NCBI GenBank assembly: GCA_050050535.1
Contig: JASFTY010000001.1
Span: forward strand, 1 to 60,159
From: Gemmatimonadales bacterium
Lineage (GTDB): Bacteria > Gemmatimonadota > Gemmatimonadetes > Palauibacterales > KS3-K002
Length of the DNA stretch: 60,159 nt
Direction: 5' to 3'
Numbering within the stretch: the stretch's first letter is position 1; the number at the start of each line of letters is the position of its first letter. Shown here piece after piece: positions 2-45,396 of the stretch. Below the pieces are notes generated by a model. It was given only the letters and a program-made list of their open reading frames with translations. It was not told the DNA's origin and made no database searches. A program made the position numbers and the translations under genes.

Positions 2-1237
2 GCCGACGTGCGGCAGATCGGGAAGAAGTTGGGCGTTGCCTACGTAGTCGAAGGCAGCGTCCGCCGCGCCGGCGACCGGCTGCGAATAACCGCCCAGCTC
101 ATCGATGCCTCGAACGGCTATCATCTGTGGTCGGATCGCTTTGATCGCGACCTCGGCGACGTCTTCGCGATCCAGGACGAGGTCGCCGAGCACGTGACGC
201 GCCAGATACTGGCCGAGATCCCCGCAGAATTGGAGAGCCTGGCAACACCGCGAACCGAGGACCTCGACGCCTACGACGCGTACCTCAAGGGCCGGCATCA
301 GCGGCACCTGTTCAGCCCCGATTCCGTCGACCGGGCGATCGCCTGGTATACCAAGTCAGTAGACGCCGACCCCGAATACGCCCCGGCCTACGCCGGCCTC
401 GCCGAGGCCTACACCATCCAATCGATCGGCTTCGCGACGCGACCCAGCCGCGAGACCATGCCAAAGGCGCGTCAAGCCGCGGACAGGGCGCGCGAGCTCG
501 ACCCACGCCTCCCAGACGCCCACCTCGCCCGTGGGCTCGTCGCCATGTTCTACGAGTGGGATCACGAAGCGGCCAAACGCAGCCTCGATCGAGCCATCGA
601 GCTCAGCCCCAGTTCGGCGAACGCCTACATGTGGTCGGAGTTCTACTGGACTTACGTTCAATACGACTACGACGAGGCGCTCGCCGCCATCCGACGCGCC
701 ATCGAGCTGGACCCCCTCGAGCCGTCCTACCGCGAACGGCTCGCCTACGTTCACCTGCTCTTCGGCCGCTACGACGAGGCCGAGCGACTACTGAGAGAAC
801 GACTGGCGAGCGGTCCCGTAACGCCGCTTCTCCACTCGGGACTCGCCGACACGCTATCGCGCACGGGTCGGCTGGCTGAAGCCGCCACTCAGATCGACAA
901 GTGCCTCGAGCTGAGCGGGCGGCTCATCACGTTCCTCGCGGTGGCTAGCGGCATCTATGCCGTGAAGGGCGAGACCGACAGGGCTCGGGAGCTGTTTGCC
1001 GAGCTACAGGAGCACGCTCATCGCACGGAGGTATCGGAATTCTGGCTCGCGATAGCTCACGCCGGATTGGGCGACACGGACGAAGCGTTCGCCCGTTTGC
1101 GGCGCGCGGTGGAGAACCGAGACAGCAATCTACTCTATTCGGCCGCCCTACCTCGGATGCTGGGCTTCCACGACGACCCGCGCTTCGCCGATATTCTGAG
1201 ATCGATCGGCCTGTCTCACCTCATCCCGTTACTGTAG
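2..1237 (+). CDS. TPR-repeat protein, C-terminal portion (5' end outside window)
   Basis: The frame of ORF 8..1237 stays open to the window edge. LGVAYVVEGSVRRAGDRLRITAQLIDASNGYHLWSDRFDR resembles the TolB-like module that precedes TPR arrays in cyclase/kinase-associated regulators. The rest is repeated TPR-like helices. Motif recognition only. Confidence 0.7.
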   Translation, partial: ADVRQIGKKLGVAYVVEGSVRRAGDRLRITAQLIDASNGYHLWSDRFDRDLGDVFAIQDEVAEHVTRQILAEIPAELESLATPRTEDLDAYDAYLKGRHQRHLFSPDSVDRAIAWYTKSVDADPEYAPAYAGLAEAYTIQSIGFATRPSRETMPKARQAADRARELDPRLPDAHLARGLVAMFYEWDHEAAKRSLDRAIELSPSSANAYMWSEFYWTYVQYDYDEALAAIRRAIELDPLEPSYRERLAYVHLLFGRYDEAERLLRERLASGPVTPLLHSGLADTLSRTGRLAEAATQIDKCLELSGRLITFLAVASGIYAVKGETDRARELFAELQEHAHRTEVSEFWLAIAHAGLGDTDEAFARLRRAVENRDSNLLYSAALPRMLGFHDDPRFADILRSIGLSHLIPLL

Positions 1238-37988: not shown

Positions 37989-40811
37989 ATGATCAAGAAG
38001 GCGGAGACCAATCGAACCGTGAACCTGACGATCGACGGTCGCCAGGTCACGGTACCGGCAGGTACGACGATCTGGGATGCGGCGAGCGAGGTCGGGATCG
38101 AGATCCCCGGCCTTTGCCACGATCCGCGACTCCGGCCCATCGGCGTCTGCCGCATCTGCGTCGTCGACGTCGGTGAGCGCGTACTGGCAGCGGCCTGTGT
38201 GCGCGAGGTGGCCGACGGTATGAACGTGCAGACGAGCTCCGAGAAGGTGGACCGTTGCCGCAGGACGCTCACCGAGCTTCTGATGTCCGATTATCCCGCG
38301 GAATCGCTGCGAGAGCAGAAGACCGGTGACGACGCGCTGCTCGCGCTCGCCCGCGCCTACGGAATCGAGCCGGCGGCGATCGAGCTGCCCGCCGGCGACG
38401 GGCGACCCCAGGACCTCTCGTCGCCGGTCATCGACGTGGATCATGCCGCCTGCATCCTCTGCGACCGCTGCATCCGCGCCTGCGACGAGGTCCAGCACAA
38501 CGACGTCATCGGGCGTACCGGCAAAGGTTACAGGTCAAGGATCGCTTTCGACCTCGACGTGCCGATGGGCGACAGCACCTGCGTCGCCTGTGGTGAGTGC
38601 GCCGCCGTTTGCCCCACCGGGGCGCTCACCGACAAGAGACTCATGGTACCGATCCAACCGCGGGGAGAGCTGCAGAGCGTCGAATCGGTCTGTCCGTACT
38701 GTGGCGTCGGCTGCGCCATCACCTACCACGTGGACCGAGACGCCAACGCCGTCGTGTTCGCCGAGGGGCGCGAGAGCCCCGCCAGCGACTCGCGCCTCTG
38801 TGTGAAGGGGCGCTACGGCTTCGACTACGCGAAGCATCCGCAACGCCTGACGGTCCCACTGATACGTAGGGACAATTTCTATCCGAAGGGCCCACTCTCC
38901 TCCGACGTGAAAGGCGAACGGCGCAGAAAGCTGGGCGGCCTGGTGGACTACGACGAGGTGATGCCGGCCTTCCGCGAGGCGACCTGGGAGGAGGCCTTGG
39001 ACTTGGCCGCCAGCCGCTTGCGCGAGATAAGGGAGAAGGACGGTCCTTCGGCGCTGGCCGGGTTCGGCTCGGCGAAGTGCAGCAACGAGGAGGGCTATCT
39101 CTTTCAGAAGCTGGTGCGCGCAGTATTCGGGACGAACAACGTGGATCACTGTACACGCCTGTGTCACGCATCATCGGTGGCAGCTCTGCTCGAGACGATC
39201 GGGTCGGGCGCGGTCACCAATGTCTTTGCCGACGTACACAACGCCGATGTCGCCGTGGTGACGGGCAGCAATACGACGGTGAACCACCCGGTGGCGGCGA
39301 CGTTCATCAAGGACGCTGCAGCGAAGGGGACGACACTCATCGTGATCGACTCGCGCGAGACCGGGATCGCCAGGCATGCGCACCACTTCCTGCACATCAG
39401 AGCCGGATCAGACGTAGCGCTGTACAACGCGATGATGCACGTGCTGATCGAGGAAGACCTCATCAATCACGCTTACATCCGCGACTACGCCGAGGGTTTC
39501 GACGGGCTGCGCGAGCTGGTGAACAGGTACACACCGGAGATGGCGCAAGAGATCTGTGGCATCTCGGCCGACCGGATCAGGGAGGTCGCCCGTGTGTTCG
39601 GACGCGCTGACGCGGCTCTGATCTTCTGGGGGATGGGCATCTCTCAGCATTCGCACGGCACCGACAACGCCCGCTGCCTGATCTCGCTGGCCCTGCTCAC
39701 CGGCAATGTGGGTCGCCCGGGGACCGGCCTTCACCCGTTGCGCGGGCAGAACAACGTGCAGGGCGCCTCGGACGCCGGTCTGATCCCGATGGTCTACCCG
39801 GACTATCAGCGGGTAGCGAGCTCGGCGTCGAGGAAGAAGTTCGAGGAGGCGTGGGGCGTGACGCTCGACCCGAACCCGGGGCTCACCGTCGTCGAGATCA
39901 TCAACGGTGCACTGGCCGGGCAGATCAAGGGCATGTACATGATGGGCGAGAACCCCTTCCTGTCGGACCCCAACGCGAACAAGGTCCGGAAGGCGCTCGC
40001 CAACCTCGAGTTCCTCTGCTCGCAGGACATCTTCCTCACCGAGACGGCCGAGTTCGCCGACGTCATCCTGCCGGCGACCTCTTTCTTCGAGAAGCAGGGG
40101 ACCTACACGAACTCGGATCGCCGCGTCCAGGTCGGGCAGAAGGTGATCGAGCCGCCCGGTCAGGCGCGCCTCGACTGGGAGCTGGTCTGTGAGATCGCGA
40201 CGCGGATGGGCTATCCGATGAGCTACGGCGGCGCCGACGAGATCTTCGCCGAGTTCACCTCACTGGCGCCCAGTTATTCGGGCCTCGACTACGAGAACCT
40301 GCGGCCTGTGGGCAAACTGTGGCCCTGCCCCGATCCGGCGACGGGCGATGGTCTGCAGTTGCTGTTCGGCGACGGGTTCCCCACCGCGAGTGGCCGCGGC
40401 AAGTTCGTGCCCGTCGACTACCAGCCGGCGGCAGAGCTGCCCGACGACGAGTACCCCTTCATCCTGGCCACCGGCAGGCTGCTCGAGCACTGGCATACCG
40501 GGACGATGACGCGCAGGTCCAAGGCCCTCGACGCCATCGAGCCGGAGGCGACATGCCAGATGAACCCGGACGACCTAGCCGACTTGGGTATCGATCCGGA
40601 CGGCTACGTGACGCTGAGCACGCGGCGCGGGTCGATCACGCTGCGGGCGCGGAGCACGCCCGGCGTGGCGCGAGGAAACGTCTTCGCTCCGTTCCACTTC
40701 CGCGAGGCTCCGGCCAACATGCTCACAAACGACGTGCTGGACCCCTTCGGGAAGATCCCGGAGTACAAGTTCTGCGCGGTGAAGGTGGAGAAGGCCGAGC
40801 CGCCCGCCTGA
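37989..40811 (+). CDS. Formate dehydrogenase alpha subunit (molybdopterin oxidoreductase), Cys-type
   Basis: N-terminal 2Fe-2S/4Fe-4S modules (GVCRICVV, CILCDRCIRAC, CVACGECAAVCP), CPYCGVGCAI, and VDHCTRLCHASSV, where codon 392 (TGT, 39162..39164) occupies the Sec/Cys active-site column. Confidence 0.9.
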   Translation: MIKKAETNRTVNLTIDGRQVTVPAGTTIWDAASEVGIEIPGLCHDPRLRPIGVCRICVVDVGERVLAAACVREVADGMNVQTSSEKVDRCRRTLTELLMSDYPAESLREQKTGDDALLALARAYGIEPAAIELPAGDGRPQDLSSPVIDVDHAACILCDRCIRACDEVQHNDVIGRTGKGYRSRIAFDLDVPMGDSTCVACGECAAVCPTGALTDKRLMVPIQPRGELQSVESVCPYCGVGCAITYHVDRDANAVVFAEGRESPASDSRLCVKGRYGFDYAKHPQRLTVPLIRRDNFYPKGPLSSDVKGERRRKLGGLVDYDEVMPAFREATWEEALDLAASRLREIREKDGPSALAGFGSAKCSNEEGYLFQKLVRAVFGTNNVDHCTRLCHASSVAALLETIGSGAVTNVFADVHNADVAVVTGSNTTVNHPVAATFIKDAAAKGTTLIVIDSRETGIARHAHHFLHIRAGSDVALYNAMMHVLIEEDLINHAYIRDYAEGFDGLRELVNRYTPEMAQEICGISADRIREVARVFGRADAALIFWGMGISQHSHGTDNARCLISLALLTGNVGRPGTGLHPLRGQNNVQGASDAGLIPMVYPDYQRVASSASRKKFEEAWGVTLDPNPGLTVVEIINGALAGQIKGMYMMGENPFLSDPNANKVRKALANLEFLCSQDIFLTETAEFADVILPATSFFEKQGTYTNSDRRVQVGQKVIEPPGQARLDWELVCEIATRMGYPMSYGGADEIFAEFTSLAPSYSGLDYENLRPVGKLWPCPDPATGDGLQLLFGDGFPTASGRGKFVPVDYQPAAELPDDEYPFILATGRLLEHWHTGTMTRRSKALDAIEPEATCQMNPDDLADLGIDPDGYVTLSTRRGSITLRARSTPGVARGNVFAPFHFREAPANMLTNDVLDPFGKIPEYKFCAVKVEKAEPPA

Positions 40812-40834
40812 ACGAACCGTGCCGCAACCGCGAC

Positions 40835-41812
40835 CTACTCGATCTCGGCAGCCTGGCCAGGGCGGCGCGCGCCGAACCGGATCTCCACTGGGTAGCCGGC
40901 GGCGAACTCGGAGAATCTGCCGGGCGACATCGCCCAGATGCTCGACCGCGCTCCGCCGGCCATCGCCTGCAGGACCTCGACCTCGCGCCGCAGCCCGTCG
41001 TCCCCCGAGATGTCCTCGGCGAAGGTCGCGGCCAGCGCGCGCAGGCGGTCCCGAAGGGTCCGCGGCTCGATCTCCACGACAGCATCTCCTTCGAACCCCG
41101 GCTGCACGAACTGCTGCCACCAGCCGTATTCCTCGTCGGGCAACTCATTACCCCGGGTCAGGATGAGACCCGCCAATTCGCTGGTCAGGTTATGCACACG
41201 GAACGCCGGGCCCTCTCGCGTGGCAAAGCTGAGGCTGAGCCGCTTGACCCCGGCATCCTCGACCAGCGCCTGGAGGTCCCTCCGCATCTCACCCTCGTCC
41301 AGATACGCGTTCACCGCCATGCTGCCCTGCAGGCTCCGCAACTCTATCGAGTAGCGATACCAGCCGGAAGCGGGGCCCGTGGAGTAGTAGGCCGACTCAT
41401 CAACGAGATACTGCGGGAAGAGCTCTATCCCGTCTTTCGTTCGAACGATCTTCCCTGTCTCGACCGCGAATTCCCTCCGCCGGGCTGCAGTCTCCCCGAA
41501 GCGCAGGCGAAGGGCGACCACAAGGGCGGCCAACAGAGTTCCGGCGGGTGCGAATGACAGGCCGACGTAACCGAACGGACCCCGGGCGGCGAAGCACGCT
41601 CCTGTCGAGATCAGCACCGCCCACGGCCAGACATTGCAGCCGTTGACGGAGGCGGAAGAGACCGAGTTCTCCCGACCCAGCACCGCTACGAACAGGTCCA
41701 CCAGATAGTGCAGCGTGAACAGGCTGACCAGCGCACTGAGCAGAAAGGCGATAGCGAGATAGACCACCGTTCGCCTACGCCACAGTGGCTTAGTACCGGA
41801 AGACCGCCGCAA
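40835..41812 (-). CDS. Hypothetical membrane protein (about 3 N-terminal TM helices plus a soluble domain of about 210 aa)
   Basis: Overlaps the upstream eRF1-like gene by 23 nt. No family recognised. Confidence 0.6.
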   Translation of the reverse strand: MRRSSGTKPLWRRRTVVYLAIAFLLSALVSLFTLHYLVDLFVAVLGRENSVSSASVNGCNVWPWAVLISTGACFAARGPFGYVGLSFAPAGTLLAALVVALRLRFGETAARRREFAVETGKIVRTKDGIELFPQYLVDESAYYSTGPASGWYRYSIELRSLQGSMAVNAYLDEGEMRRDLQALVEDAGVKRLSLSFATREGPAFRVHNLTSELAGLILTRGNELPDEEYGWWQQFVQPGFEGDAVVEIEPRTLRDRLRALAATFAEDISGDDGLRREVEVLQAMAGGARSSIWAMSPGRFSEFAAGYPVEIRFGARRPGQAAEIE

Positions 41813-42938
41813 CCGGGCTCCGCGCGTCCGGGACTTCGGTCGGGCTGACCGCGTAGACGTCTCCGGCGTGCGCCAGCGTCAGCACCGCGGCAAGGTCCAG
41901 CAGGTCCTGGTCACCCGGCTGCCGATCCTCGTGTAGCTCCAGTTCGCCGGCAGCCGCCTCGAACGCGCCCCAGCGCTGCACACCCACCGCAACGAAGAGC
42001 GAGTCAACACGACCTTGAAAGGCCGACGGTACGATCCTCTTCAGATCGGCCGATGTCTTGCCCGTCCCGGCCAATTCCCGGTATTTCGCAGACGCCCGCG
42101 CCTGCACTGTGGCGAAATGCGGCTCCAAAATGGCCCAGGCCTCGTCATGAAGCTCCCGAGCCGACAGCCCATCGGGATTACCGATGATCCCTTCGTCCAT
42201 CAGCTGGGCGTAGGTGCTCGCCTCGCGGTAGATGGGCAGTAGATAGTCGACACCGGCCACGACCAGCGGGATGCGCTCCGCGGACATCAACTCCTGCAGC
42301 CCCCGATCGACCCGCTTGAAATAGCGGAGCAGATCCTTCTTGTGCTCCGACTCGTCACCCGCCGAGCCGTGGCCGTGGAAGATCGCCGACCCTCCCCGCC
42401 CGGCGGTGTGGTATTGCAGTTGTCTCTCTCGCTCCTCGTCGCCCAAGGCCTCGGAGAGGCTCGTCGGCGCATCCTCCAAGTTCACCTCATCGATGCTGTG
42501 CCGCGTCCCGAGCAGCAGGCGAACCTGCTTCTGACTCACGGCCAGGACGTAGAAGCGTCCGTCGCCGCTGAGTAGTGGCAGCAACGGCTTCACGTGGAAT
42601 CGATCGGTGACCACGACGAGCTCGGCGAAGCTGACCGGCAGCCGATAGCTGCGAAACGTTTCCGGTGAAGCGAACACGGCGAGCCCATCACTCTGATGCT
42701 GCCAGAACATCTTGTCGCCCAGTAGCCTCCGCGCCGGCTCGAGGATCCTCTCGGCGTCGGCACGACGCAGCCCGTTCTTGCGGAGTCGCTCTTCCGACTG
42801 CCTGAGCAGGTTCTTCAGCCGGATAGGATCCTGCTGCGTCTCGGGGCCTAGCCGATGGGTGGGCAGGTATATCGAGACGCACAGGTCGCCGCGCTCATCG
42901 ATGAGCGTGCCTATTTCCACTCTGTTCAGGATATCCAT
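41790..42938 (-). CDS. Bacterial eRF1-like (baeRF superfamily) protein
   Basis: The N-terminus (LCVSIYLPTHRLGPETQQDPIRLKNLLRQSEERL), the central GRFYVLAVSQKQVRLLLG, a Gly-rich loop (HTAGRGGSAIFHGHGSAG), then EHKKDLLRYFKRVDRGLQELM..IPLVVAGVDYLLPIYRE follow the layout I recall for baeRF / host-attachment-protein families. Confidence 0.55.
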   Translation of the reverse strand: MDILNRVEIGTLIDERGDLCVSIYLPTHRLGPETQQDPIRLKNLLRQSEERLRKNGLRRADAERILEPARRLLGDKMFWQHQSDGLAVFASPETFRSYRLPVSFAELVVVTDRFHVKPLLPLLSGDGRFYVLAVSQKQVRLLLGTRHSIDEVNLEDAPTSLSEALGDEERERQLQYHTAGRGGSAIFHGHGSAGDESEHKKDLLRYFKRVDRGLQELMSAERIPLVVAGVDYLLPIYREASTYAQLMDEGIIGNPDGLSARELHDEAWAILEPHFATVQARASAKYRELAGTGKTSADLKRIVPSAFQGRVDSLFVAVGVQRWGAFEAAAGELELHEDRQPGDQDLLDLAAVLTLAHAGDVYAVSPTEVPDARSPVAAVFRY

Positions 42939-43038
42939 CTCGACCTCTCGCTAGCACGCGGCTTGTGGCGGGCCTGGACTGAGACCGGGCGTTCTCGGCA
43001 CCGATTGTCAAGATACCATCCTTCGTCACGCACGCCAC

Positions 43039-43268
43039 GGGACCTGGGAACTAGGGACTCTGGAGTTCTGGGAGTTGCGCTTTGGAGCGCCGGCAGTCCG
43101 CGGAATCCGTGGTATTGGGGAACTGGGGATCTCGGGATCCCCTGATTCGCGGAATCCACGGATTCCACGGATGCCTCGGATTCCTATTCGCCATCGCCGA
43201 TCCCCCGGTCGAGGAGTCACGAATAGCGGAATTCCGAATTCCGCGAATCCCCGCCCTGAATCCCCTAG
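43039..43268. repeat. Cluster of degenerate 7-8 nt direct repeats and nested GGAATCC/GGAATTCC palindromes (REP-like)
   Basis: Examples: ggggatc-tcgg-gatcccc (43125..43142), ggaatccgtgg (43102..43112) pairing with ccacggattcc (43156..43166), and gcggaatt-ccg-aattccgc (43226..43244). GGGAnCT units run in tandem at 43039..43075. Confidence 0.6.
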
Positions 43269-43331
43269 GCCCGCGGGGCCGTAGTGCTCAGTAGGGGCAG
43301 GCAGTATAATACTCAGTGAGGACCGGAGCCG

Positions 43332-43616
43332 ATGTTCATGATTGAGCTAATCCTCGCCGGCGGCGTAGCCTACGGCGGTTACAAGTACACGAAGAAGTTC
43401 GTGGTCAAGAAGCTGCGGTTCGTGCCGAAGGCCCGGCGCGGAGTCGCGCCCTGGCTGGCCGGGGCGGGCGCGCTCATCCTGGCGGCTCCCGTCGCCGCAG
43501 CCCTACCACTGATCACCGGGTTCACCGCCGCGGCGTTCGGCGCCAGTGTTGCCGGCGGTGTGGCCTCCGGCAACAAGGAAATCGAGAAGACCAACATCTG
43601 GGGCGACCGCCGCTGA
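43332..43616 (+). CDS. Small hypothetical membrane protein (94 aa)
   Basis: Two or three hydrophobic Gly/Ala-rich helices. GGAG sits 4 nt upstream and a TATAAT hexamer lies at 43305..43310. Confidence 0.5.
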   Translation: MFMIELILAGGVAYGGYKYTKKFVVKKLRFVPKARRGVAPWLAGAGALILAAPVAAALPLITGFTAAAFGASVAGGVASGNKEIEKTNIWGDRR

Positions 43617-43659
43617 GGGTCGGCCCCGAGCACTGATTACTTCACTCTGCTACGTACAA

Positions 43660-43688
43660 GGCCGCCGCGCTCGGCGAGCGCGGCGGCC
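43660..43688. terminator. Perfect 12-bp GC hairpin between convergent genes
   Basis: ggccgccgcgct-cggcg-agcgcggcggcc. Confidence 0.55.
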
Positions 43689-43698
43689 GTCACATCTT

Positions 43699-45396
43699 TC
43701 AACCGGTTTGGGCGCGCTCCCCCTGAATCCAGCGCTGCGCCAACCCGAAGGCGCCGGCGACGAGCGCCATCAGCAGGACGCCGTAGGCGGCGGCCGCGCC
43801 GAGATCGAAGTCCCTGAGCTGCGAGAGGATCTCGATCGAGATGGGCCGAGTGCGGTGCGTGTAGAGAACGATCGATGCGACGAACTCGCCGAGCCCCGTG
43901 ACGAAGGCGAGGGCTGCACCGGCGGCGAGCGCGGGCAGCAGCGCCGGGATCGTGATGCGCCGCAGCGTACGCCATGGGCCAGCGCCCAAAGACGATGCGG
44001 CCTCTTCGAGGCTGGGGTCGAGTTGGCGGAATCCCGCCAGCACCGCCCGTCCGGTCAACGGCAGGACGCGGAGCGCGTACGCCATCACCAGGATCCAGGC
44101 CGTGCCGACCAGCACGAACCGTCCGGCCCAGGGCTGATTGACGCTGAAGGTCGTCGCCAGCGCGATGGCCAGCACCGTGCCGGGCAGCGCCCACGGCAAA
44201 GCCAGAATCCCTTCCAAGAGGCGACGACCTGGTACACGCCAGCTGACCACGAGCCGACCGACAGCGAGGGCGACGGCGATCGCGATGACCGTCGCGCCAC
44301 CGGCCATCAGTAGCGAGTTCACGATAGGCCGGAACGTCCGCGCCTCGGCGAAGAGCTGGGCGTAGTTCTCCAGCGAGTAACGCGGCGGCAGCGTCTGCAC
44401 CGTCCAGGTACCGTCGGGTACCAGCGAGACCAGCAGCAGCGTGAGGTGGGGCAGAATCAGCAAAAGCACGCCGGCCCCGGCGGCCGCTGGCAAGCCGATC
44501 GCCGCCCAACGTGACTTGACCGGTACCCGCAGCGGTGCCGAGCCTTTGCCGGGCGCGACGTACTCGCGCGCGCCCTCCCAGCGGGCCAGCGGCCAGAGCA
44601 CGAGCAGCGAGACCGCTGCCAGCATCACCGTCTCGACCATCGCCATCACGGTCTCACCCTGGAGCTTGCTGTTGAAGATCTGGGTGGTCATCACTCGAAA
44701 GCCGCCGCCCAGGACATAAGGCGCACTGAACGATGCCATGGAGGTCATGAAGGTGAGTAGCGACGCGCCGGCCAGCGTTGGCGCGAGCAGCGGCAGAGTC
44801 ACACGGCGGAAGGTGCGGGCCCGGCCCGCGCCGAGCGAGGCCGCAGCCTCGAGCACCGCCGGATCGAGCCGCGCCAGCCCGGCCAGGGTGAACAGGTAGA
44901 AGTAGACGTACATCGAGTAGGCGTGCACGGCGAGGATCGCCCCGGAGCCGCGTAGTCGCCAGGGCGGCGACTCCAAACCGAGAGCGTCCTGCACGAGCCG
45001 GGTCGCGATGCCGCTCTCGCCGTACAAGAAGAGAATCGCGATGACGCCCACCAGCGGCGGCAAGAGGACCGGCATGGCCGCCAGGCCACCGAGCAGTCGC
45101 CGGCCAGGGAACTCATAGCGGGCAAACACCAGGGCGAGCGGTACTCCAATCAGCGCAGAGAAGAGCACCGTGAGGGCGGAGATCCAGAAGCTGGACCAGA
45201 GGGCGCGCAGCTCCGAGGCGGTGCCCACGAACGCCGCATAGTAACGCAGCGTGAAGCCCTCGGCACCGCGCAGACTGCCGGCCAGGACCACCAGGTTCGG
45301 GTAGACCACAGCCCAGAACAGGACCACGAAGATCGCGACGACAAGGAGTCGGTCCTTCGGTCCCAGCCGCTTACCGTCGCCGCCCCCGCTAATCAT
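43699..45396 (-). CDS. ABC transporter permease, fused two-domain (FbpB/ThiP-like)
   Basis: About 12 TM helices with two EAA-loop-like segments (LEAAASLGAGRARTFRRVTLPLL and LEEAASSLGAGPWRTLRRITIPAL). Confidence 0.85.
   Translation of the reverse strand: MISGGGDGKRLGPKDRLLVVAIFVVLFWAVVYPNLVVLAGSLRGAEGFTLRYYAAFVGTASELRALWSSFWISALTVLFSALIGVPLALVFARYEFPGRRLLGGLAAMPVLLPPLVGVIAILFLYGESGIATRLVQDALGLESPPWRLRGSGAILAVHAYSMYVYFYLFTLAGLARLDPAVLEAAASLGAGRARTFRRVTLPLLAPTLAGASLLTFMTSMASFSAPYVLGGGFRVMTTQIFNSKLQGETVMAMVETVMLAAVSLLVLWPLARWEGAREYVAPGKGSAPLRVPVKSRWAAIGLPAAAGAGVLLLILPHLTLLLVSLVPDGTWTVQTLPPRYSLENYAQLFAEARTFRPIVNSLLMAGGATVIAIAVALAVGRLVVSWRVPGRRLLEGILALPWALPGTVLAIALATTFSVNQPWAGRFVLVGTAWILVMAYALRVLPLTGRAVLAGFRQLDPSLEEAASSLGAGPWRTLRRITIPALLPALAAGAALAFVTGLGEFVASIVLYTHRTRPISIEILSQLRDFDLGAAAAYGVLLMALVAGAFGLAQRWIQGERAQTG

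Follow-up and report, generated by a model that had tools for sequence, protein, structure and literature searches.

We consider it highly probable that P1, the protein encoded on the minus strand at the centre of the region studied (Table 1), belongs to a Gemmatimonadota ortholog group of the Balon family, the catalytically inactive bacterial hibernation factors derived from aeRF1, and that P2, the membrane protein encoded after it, is unrelated, lineage-restricted and not a conserved partner. Both genes lie in the window, the whole stretch of 60,159 nt (60 kb) that was analysed. The family membership, fold and missing catalytic motifs of P1, the corrected start of P2, and the phyletic and synteny pattern are directly supported; ribosome binding and a hibernation function are, by homology, most likely for P1.

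Balon was characterised in 2024 as a bacterial ribosome hibernation factor, with cryo-EM, knockout and in vitro data (PMC10901736), and a link of baeRF proteins to hibernation had been predicted earlier (PMC6514570). The description of such proteins as essentially unstudied experimentally, given in the original prediction, is therefore outdated, since for a full-length homolog, Balon, a ribosome-bound structure and genetic tests have been published (PMC10901736). Balon occupies the ribosomal A site, whether the ribosome is vacant or translating, and inhibits translation; its features are an N-domain HP motif contacting A1492/A1913, a middle-domain lasso loop with a bL27 trap, and an EF-Tu-binding beta-hairpin inserted in the C-domain (Helena-Bueno et al. 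2024; PMC10901736).

Table 1. Features of the P1–P2 region, in window coordinates (residue numbers for parts of P1).
Feature	Position	Strand	Description
Formate dehydrogenase alpha subunit	37989..40811	plus	TIGR01591 Fdh-alpha 7.2e-235, above cut-off; Pfam; convergent with P2
P2	40835..41767	minus	310 aa from GTG 41767; orphan membrane protein
Spacer, P1 stop to probable P2 start	41768..41789	minus	22 nt; weak AGG Shine-Dalgarno-like element; P1 stop TAA 41792-41790
P1	41790..42938	minus	382 aa; homolog of the Balon-type ribosome hibernation factors, baeRF clade
P1 N-domain block PTHRLGPETQQDPIRLKNLL	residues 26-45
P1 flexible middle-domain loop RGGSAIFHGHGSAG	residues ~180-193		Gln absent
P1 C-domain			aeRF1/Pelota-like
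Divergent intergenic region, P1 to 94-aa ORF	42939..43331		393 nt; ends conserved, centre variable with short degenerate repeats
Small hydrophobic ORF, 94 aa	43332..43616	plus	divergent from P1; context only

Family assignment and fold of P1

The sequence blocks quoted in the original prediction are present in the P1 product, and its reading of P1 as an eRF1-like protein of the baeRF type was borne out. The central domain matches the Pfam models baeRF_family3 (E 2.5e-49), family7 (5.1e-48) and family6 (4.1e-38) with 168.3, 163.3 and 131.5 bits, respectively, far above the gathering cut-offs of 31.5, 27.2 and 27.5; baeRF_family8 and baeRF_family11 also match. The NCBIfam model NF052287 (“AOC03_06830 family ribosome hibernation factor”) is matched over profile positions 6-361 of 361 (E 1.9e-52), but the score of 178.9 bits misses the equivalog cut-off of 330, so by the NCBIfam standard P1 falls in a related subfamily and is not a strict equivalog. 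In a phmmer search residues 11-382 align with residues 7-369 of Psychrobacter urativorans Balon (PDB 8rd8_B, E 4.7e-25), and a profile search matched the same protein at E 3.3e-34. No match to Pfam Host_attach was obtained at E <= 1, and the assignment of the C-terminal block to that type was not confirmed.

The AlphaFold2 (AF2) model of P1 (pLDDT 76.4) tells the same story. Its best five Foldseek matches are all Balon structures (4e-21 to 3e-16), and the ranking runs from P. urativorans Balon (4e-21) through the Balon Msmeg1130 (2e-16) and aRF1 (8e-13) to eRF1, the Balon Rv2629 and Pelota. In the fold comparison suggested in the original prediction, ribosome-bound Balon is thus a better match than aRF1, eRF1 or Pelota. 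P. urativorans Balon (AOC03_06830; PDB 8RD8/8RDV/8RDW) is collinear with P1 over the full length at ~23% identity, and the two share three aeRF1-like domains and the N-domain pattern TH-R-x-x-P...QDPIxLKN, and both lack NIKS and GGQ. The mycobacterial Balons Msmeg1130 and Rv2629 (PDB 8V9J/8V9L/8V9K; NF052288) have the fold and domain order of P1 (Foldseek 2e-16 to 6e-11) and gave the highest TM-scores (0.48-0.52). Their sequence similarity to P1 is marginal (NF052288 E 2.2e-6, 27 bits versus a cut-off of 480), and the P1 clade profile did not retrieve them from PDB sequences at E <= 10. Homologous three-domain architecture is also seen in aRF1/eRF1 and Pelota/Dom34 (Foldseek 8e-13 to 1e-4), with E-values many orders of magnitude worse than those of the Balon matches.

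The conserved N-domain block (PTHRxxPETQQDPIRxKNL) hardly varies across 46 homologs from ~10 phyla. The THREHP of P. urativorans Balon aligns with THRLGP in P1, which has Gly in place of the His of the aligned HP dipeptide; the Pro is invariant in the 46 homologs, whereas the residue before it varies and is mostly Gly. Two strands of the P1 model (residues 323-327 and 332-336), in a part of the protein that aligns collinearly with Balon, are candidates for the EF-Tu-binding hairpin. The middle-domain loop, longer in P1 than in P. urativorans Balon, is predicted to be disordered (AF2 pLDDT <50 at residues 178-194) and carries FHGHG. It lies where a lasso loop would be expected, with a sequence unlike that of P. 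urativorans. This [FY]HG[HQ]G motif is conserved in the clade of P1, across phyla, and is missing from P. urativorans Balon, so contacts at the peptidyl-transferase centre (PTC) may differ between the two.

The original prediction had placed a glycine-rich loop where eRF1 and Vms1 carry their catalytic one. The loop is indeed at that position, but a sequence scan found no GGQ, GxxQ or NIKS anywhere in P1. A classical aeRF1/eRF1 release factor was therefore rejected, as P1 has neither the GGQ loop nor NIKS and gave no match to Pfam eRF1_1/2/3 at E <= 1. An active release or rescue factor of a less classical kind, which would act as a peptidyl-tRNA hydrolase on stalled ribosomes like eRF1/Vms1 with the glycine-rich loop as catalytic element, would gain from the cross-phylum conservation of the loop motif at the GGQ-equivalent position, from the Gln found fourth in it in several homologs, and from a 2019 comparative analysis in which a rescue function of baeRF proteins was still considered possible (PMC6514570). 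We regard such a factor as very unlikely. P1 itself has His instead of Gln there, its closest relatives by both sequence and fold are the non-catalytic Balons, Balon keeps the PTC in an inert state (PMC10901736), and the same 2019 analysis judged most baeRF families to be catalytically inactive (PMC6514570).

The orphan membrane protein P2

The same-strand membrane ORF described downstream of P1 exists, but not at the proposed 325 aa, a reading that takes the ORF's first TTG (41812) as its start codon. Alignments of 13 and 16 family sequences, together with gene calls of 310-312 aa, put the N-terminus at the GTG listed in Table 1. The 23-nt overlap with P1, on which the proposed translational coupling had been based, is on the evidence of these alignments a start-codon artefact that arose because the longest ORF was taken. 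The two genes are instead separated by 22 nt, both here and in the closest relative, L060 (and in L061), and by 109 and 137 nt in L001 and L002, respectively.

The AF2 model of P2 (pLDDT 83.3, pTM 0.73) has helices at residues 2-30, 47-72 and 75-91, and hydropathy shows two strong hydrophobic segments and one weaker; the roughly three transmembrane (TM) helices originally proposed are thus plausible. They are N-terminal and are followed by an alpha/beta domain. An Arg-rich stretch, RLRFGETAARRREF, lies after TM3, which suggests a topology with the soluble domain probably cytoplasmic. Conserved motifs are SVNGCxxWP, RLRF, YYxTGPASGY and WW. All 19 relatives found are annotated as hypothetical and lack Pfam domains, the family amounts to 72 representative clusters among 1.84 billion (1.84e9) proteins, and its sequence patterns were matched in only 6 of 185,579 species genomes. 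Searches of Pfam, NCBIfam, PDB, PADLOC and PHROG gave no match, and Foldseek returned only noise (best E 0.098 in PDB and 0.033 in a viral library, TM <= 0.17). P2 is a genuine but rare, lineage-restricted orphan membrane protein, with a confident model and no fold match.

Gene neighbourhood and the question of a partnership

Only in one Gemmatimonadota sub-clade does the P2 gene separate Balon from the convergent formate dehydrogenase gene. P2 was found within 5 kb of a Balon homolog at 4 of 46 loci in species genomes. At least five sister genomes (L009, L010, L015, L016, L023) keep the order ABC transporter, small ORF, Balon, formate dehydrogenase alpha (FDHα) without P2, and there the FDHα gene directly abuts Balon. 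One of them, L023, nests within the P2-bearing clade in 200 of 200 bootstraps (distance method). The Balon gene was absent from all six distant P2-family loci inspected (L004, L005, L052, L053, L054, L059), where neighbours are unrelated (prenyltransferase-like, DAO, TenA-like, two-component system), a reverse test limited by the short length (1.3-3.3 kb) of most contigs with distant P2 relatives. When Balon loci of other phyla were searched for a membrane-protein gene that recurs beside Balon, only a P-type cation ATPase (3 loci), unrelated to P2, was found. The proposal of one functional unit does not survive this comparison, whose outcome is the one that the original prediction had itself named as refuting: as judged from gene distribution, P2 is not a conserved or required partner of P1.

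Within Gemmatimonadota, no neighbour accompanies this Balon ortholog as faithfully as the divergent 94-aa ORF. Copies of it (68-97% identical) lie near Balon in 12 of 12 distinct Gemmatimonadota genomes with upstream sequence, adjoining it in 10 and ~3.8 kb away in L015/L016, and it is kept in L060 even though upstream synteny is broken there. It has no family match, PADLOC and PHROG included. The repeat-filled upstream region of about 390 bp noted originally was confirmed in the spacer before this ORF: a 9-nt unit, CGGATTCCA, occurs 3.9 times at 43150-43184, along with 8-nt and 7-nt units and several palindromes. An alignment of close relatives shows conservation over about 95 nt next to the P1 ATG (42939-43035), with GGATGGTATCTTGAnAATCGG and a hairpin among the conserved elements. 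Orthologous spacers of 205-447 nt hold the same motif types in differing numbers, and these types are absent from the spacers of more distant Gemmatimonadota. Rfam has nothing in 40700-43700, a scan of the intergenic region found no sigma-70 consensus, and the one terminator-like site is no more than chance would give. Typical Balon contexts among the homologs include HPF/RaiA downstream with a 3-nt overlap (for example L048); for P1, in contrast to P. urativorans Balon, an HPF/RaiA-like gene was not detected in the window, nor was any classic stress gene.

Two readings would make more of the gene pair. In one, the two genes make up a module specific to this lineage, in which P2 tethers or regulates Balon-bound hibernating ribosomes at the membrane. 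The genes are on the same strand, the 22-nt gap is kept in the window and L060/L061, adjacency is present in every genome with a close P2 ortholog, the Arg-rich segment points to a cytoplasmic domain, and membrane-anchored hibernation factors are known in YqjD/ElaB/YgaM (bioRxiv 10.1101/2024.08.16.608256). These DUF883 proteins resemble P2 only in the concept of a membrane protein acting on hibernating ribosomes: they are C-tail anchored, whereas P2 has an N-terminal anchor of ~3 TM helices, there is no similarity in sequence or fold to them or to any ribosome-binding fold, and P2 is not conserved with Balon. Since the whole neighbourhood is syntenic at such evolutionary distance, adjacency carries little information; in addition, the gap widens to 109-137 nt in other P2-bearing genomes, P2 is absent from L023, nested in the P2-bearing clade, with Balon intact, none of the six distant P2 loci has Balon, and ~40 Balon loci of other lineages lack P2. 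We therefore think a two-gene module unlikely. Co-expression in this lineage is possible given the co-oriented genes and the short gap kept in the closest relative, and the two may be co-transcribed in this genome. The other reading, in which the pair is a conflict or anti-phage system carried by a mobile island, draws on the lateral transfer of baeRF proteins, some of which are proposed to counter ribosome-targeting effectors (PMC6514570), and on the rare and patchy occurrence of P2. It was rejected because neither PADLOC nor PHROGs matched P1, P2 or the small ORF, and we hold it to be extremely improbable: the flanks are housekeeping genes (ABC transporter, FDH alpha, NuoF-like) in a block syntenic across Gemmatimonadota, GC content is uniform across the window, and no integrase or mobile-element boundaries were seen in the flanks examined.

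Proposed action and significance

As a Balon-family protein, P1 would most likely occupy the A site of ribosomes under stress or in stationary phase. Its conserved N-domain block would contact the decoding centre and leave the mRNA unread, the middle domain would put its flexible, Gln-less loop beside the PTC with the nascent chain not released, and the C-domain would engage EF-Tu; the combined effect would be to block translation and protect idle ribosomes. Two further readings, which taken jointly we find quite unlikely, are that P2, with a new fold and a probably cytoplasmic domain, was recruited as a Balon accessory in the one sub-clade, and, as the smaller alternative, that this subfamily's conserved [FY]HG[HQ]G loop touches the PTC differently from the P. 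urativorans lasso loop. If the former were true, P2 could, for example, keep hibernating ribosomes with bound Balon at the membrane, or it could gate the activity of Balon.

The apparent coupled membrane partner comes down to a start-codon artefact and local synteny. Of modest interest to specialists, P2 stands for a membrane-protein family that is very rare and whose fold, predicted with confidence, matches nothing known in the searches, and the clade of P1 is a large Balon subfamily with a conserved loop motif missing in the structurally characterised P. urativorans protein. For the field as a whole little changes: a Gemmatimonadota ortholog group is added to a hibernation-factor family reported in 23 phyla.

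Family membership of the eRF1-like protein

The eRF1-like ORF, here P1, starts at an ATG, encodes 382 residues and includes all the sequence blocks quoted in the original prediction, which placed it correctly among the baeRF-type proteins. Its central domain matched the Pfam baeRF clade (family3, E = 2.5e-49; family7, 5.1e-48; family6, 4.1e-38). No match to Pfam eRF1_1, eRF1_2 or eRF1_3 was found at E ≤ 1, nor one to Host_attach, the type to which the C-terminal block had been assigned. NCBIfam NF052287, "AOC03_06830 family ribosome hibernation factor", spans P1 (residues 14-382 against profile positions 6-361 of 361) with an E-value of 1.9e-52; the score, 178.9 bits, falls short of the 330 required of an equivalog. 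Balon of Psychrobacter urativorans is the protein designated AOC03_06830. The match to the NCBIfam MSMEG_1130 family was weak. P1 also aligned end to end with the P. urativorans Balon chain 8RD8_B (E = 4.7e-25; 3.3e-34 with a clade profile), and more than 4,298 relatives were detected at E ≤ 1e-10. When the AF2 model of P1 (pLDDT 76.4, pTM 0.63) was used in a structure search, three P. urativorans Balon structures ranked first (about 4e-21), followed by Msmeg1130 Balon of M. smegmatis (2e-16), aRF1 (8e-13), and then eRF1, Rv2629 Balon and Pelota. P1 is a further baeRF protein of a known, experimentally characterised family, Balon. Look-ups by name could be misled by a legacy mis-annotation: chain B (Balon) of PDB entries 8RD8, 8RDV and 8RDW is named 'Methyl-accepting chemotaxis protein' in the PDB sequence file.

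Balon binds the ribosomal A site together with EF-Tu, as seen in cryo-EM structures on ribosomes; it lacks NIKS and GGQ, its knockouts have growth phenotypes, and translation is inhibited in vitro (PMC10901736). The 2019 definition of the baeRF families had already tied them to HPF and translational shutdown (PMC6514570). Because of these two papers, the claim that the family is essentially unstudied experimentally is out of date.

None of GGQ, GxxQ and NIKS occurs in P1. The N-domain block PTHRxxPETQQDPIRxKNL is nearly invariant in 46 homolog loci drawn from many phyla. The P. urativorans "HP" dipeptide, which may be the HP motif that the text of PMC10901736 describes without residue numbers, aligns to "GP" in P1; its Pro is invariant across these loci and the preceding residue variable. 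At the GGQ-equivalent position the P1 clade has a conserved [FY]HG[HQ]G motif, whereas P. urativorans Balon lacks it. The motif reads FHGHG in P1, with Gln replacing the second His in some homologs, and is kept across Gemmatimonadota, Acidobacteriota, Chloroflexota, Actinomycetota, Planctomycetota and other phyla. In the AF2 model this loop is disordered.

Coordinates of features in and around the P1 gene
Feature	Position	Strand	Details
Formate dehydrogenase alpha subunit gene (FDH alpha)	37989..40811	+	convergent with P2
P2, membrane-protein gene	40835..41767	-	310 aa from GTG
P2, longest reading	40835..41812	-	325 aa from TTG; 23-nt overlap with P1
P1, Balon homolog	41790..42938	-	
[FY]HG[HQ]G loop motif	about 42366..42380	-	P1 residues 187-191; homolog alignment
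Conserved segment GGATGGTATCTTGAnAATCGG, then hairpin, then GAGG Shine-Dalgarno element	42939..43035	-	just upstream of P1 ATG
Variable short degenerate repeat tract	43040..43260		centre of 42939..43331 spacer; GGAATCC/GGATTCC, CCGTGGnAT, GGGAnTC; 7-9-nt periods; palindromes
Hydrophobic ORF, 94 aa	43332..43616	+	divergent from P1

The downstream membrane-protein gene

Translational coupling of P1 to the membrane-protein gene that follows it, P2, had been proposed from the overlap in the longest reading of P2. We collected 19 relatives of P2 from a set of 5.8 billion proteins; all are "hypothetical", their length is 310-312 aa with few exceptions, and those with a named source are all from Gemmatimonadota. 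Aligned N-termini share the start M-[IV]-x-Y-L-A, and the matching start codon in the window is GTG 41767, leaving a gap of 22 nt after the P1 stop. The closest relative (L060/L061, 82% identity) has a gene call with the same gap, and in two complete MAG chromosomes the gap is 109 and 137 nt. The overlap, and hence the argument for coupling, is an artefact of choosing the longest ORF.

P2 is a real gene: its family is conserved, the motifs SVNGCxxWP, RLRF, YYxTGPASGY and WW are invariant, and AF2 models it confidently (pLDDT 83.3, pTM 0.73) as about three N-terminal helices followed by an alpha/beta domain. By the positive-inside rule, an Arg-rich stretch following helix three would put this domain in the cytoplasm. 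No match was found in Pfam, NCBIfam, PDB sequences, PADLOC or PHROG, and the fold search gave nothing significant (best E 0.098 in PDB and 0.033 among viral structures, TM ≤ 0.17).

GC content is about 66% across the entire window, and close relatives of both proteins all come from Gemmatimonadota MAGs, which makes this phylum the most likely origin of the window. A conserved coupled unit is not what other genomes reveal, and a coupled membrane partner of P1 is not supported: a P2 relative lies within 5 kb of Balon at only four of the 46 Balon-homolog loci sampled from species-representative genomes, all four in Gemmatimonadota with Balon at 84-86% identity. Five loci (L009, L010, L015, L016 and L023) have an ABC ATPase and permease, the divergent 94-aa ORF, Balon and a convergent FDH alpha gene directly adjoining Balon, with no P2 between. 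When Balon and FDH alpha were concatenated for neighbour-joining, the P2-less L023 fell inside the P2-bearing clade (200/200 bootstraps); the presence of P2 is therefore patchy with Balon intact, most simply through loss in L023.

Searching 1.84 billion representative proteins with a profile yielded only 72 P2-family clusters, and scanning 185,579 species genomes for P2 patterns gave six loci, five from Gemmatimonadota and one from Planctomycetota. In a separate set of six distant P2 loci (L004, L005, L052, L053, L054 and L059), none carries a Balon homolog; this reverse test is weakened by the shortness of several contigs, while L059 has 5 kb on each side. The distant loci share no neighbours (a prenyltransferase-like gene, a DAO oxidoreductase, a TenA-like gene, an OmpR-type regulator with a HAMP histidine kinase), and such varied surroundings suggest that P2 is a membrane protein acting on its own. 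L059 (Planctomycetota MAG CAZXNM010000002.1, 2793..5957) is the sole genome match outside Gemmatimonadota; its P2 relative is encoded immediately after, and on the same strand as, an OmpR-type response regulator and HAMP-HisKA sensor kinase, which hints at an envelope or signalling setting.

The upstream spacer and other Balon neighbours

The short degenerate tandem and palindromic repeats predicted in the 393-nt region upstream of P1 are present. Orthologous spacers of 205-447 nt in L001, L006, L013 and L023 have the same motif types in other copy numbers; none were found in the spacers of L002 and L009-L014, a range that includes L013, also listed as a carrier. The tract, which had no Rfam match, seems to expand and contract quickly. 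The window shares with L001, L006, L013, L023 and L060 the conserved segment next to P1, with its hairpin GCCGAG(G)...(C)CTCGGC of variable loop; this segment could be a promoter or a 5'-UTR regulatory element of the Balon gene.

The 94-aa ORF had no family, PADLOC or PHROG match. All 12 distinct Gemmatimonadota genomes for which the upstream sequence is available have a copy (68-97% identity) near Balon, at a distance of about 3.8 kb in L015/L016. L060 retains it despite replacement of the upstream ABC transporter, and the ORF accompanies Balon more faithfully than P2 does. Neighbours in other lineages are heterogeneous, matching the published picture of homologs in 1,572 species of 23 phyla with usually variable, stress-related contexts (PMC10901736). 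HPF/RaiA lies downstream in L048 with a 3-nt overlap, and DUF72 follows Balon in two loci. A P-type cation-transporting ATPase (824-920 aa) is downstream in L020, L039 and L042, from different phyla (Chloracidobacterium, Coriobacteriia, Phycisphaerales), and may be a recurrent association.

Proposed role and alternatives

We consider it likely that P1 is a Balon-type hibernation factor and P2 an unrelated neighbour. P1 would occupy the ribosomal A site, touch the decoding centre and PTC without catalysis, and engage EF-Tu. An active release or rescue factor is a quite improbable alternative, since P1 lacks the Gln and Balon ranks first in similarity. A module in which P2 would tether or regulate Balon-bound hibernating ribosomes at the membrane is somewhat less improbable but still unlikely: the 22-nt gap and co-orientation in this lineage favour it, as does the precedent of membrane-anchored hibernation factors, and the rarity of the pairing counts against it. 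Least probable of all is a conflict system, as the context is housekeeping and vertically syntenic and PADLOC and PHROG scans were empty. What novelty remains is found in the orphan P2 family and in a loop motif specific to the P1 subfamily.
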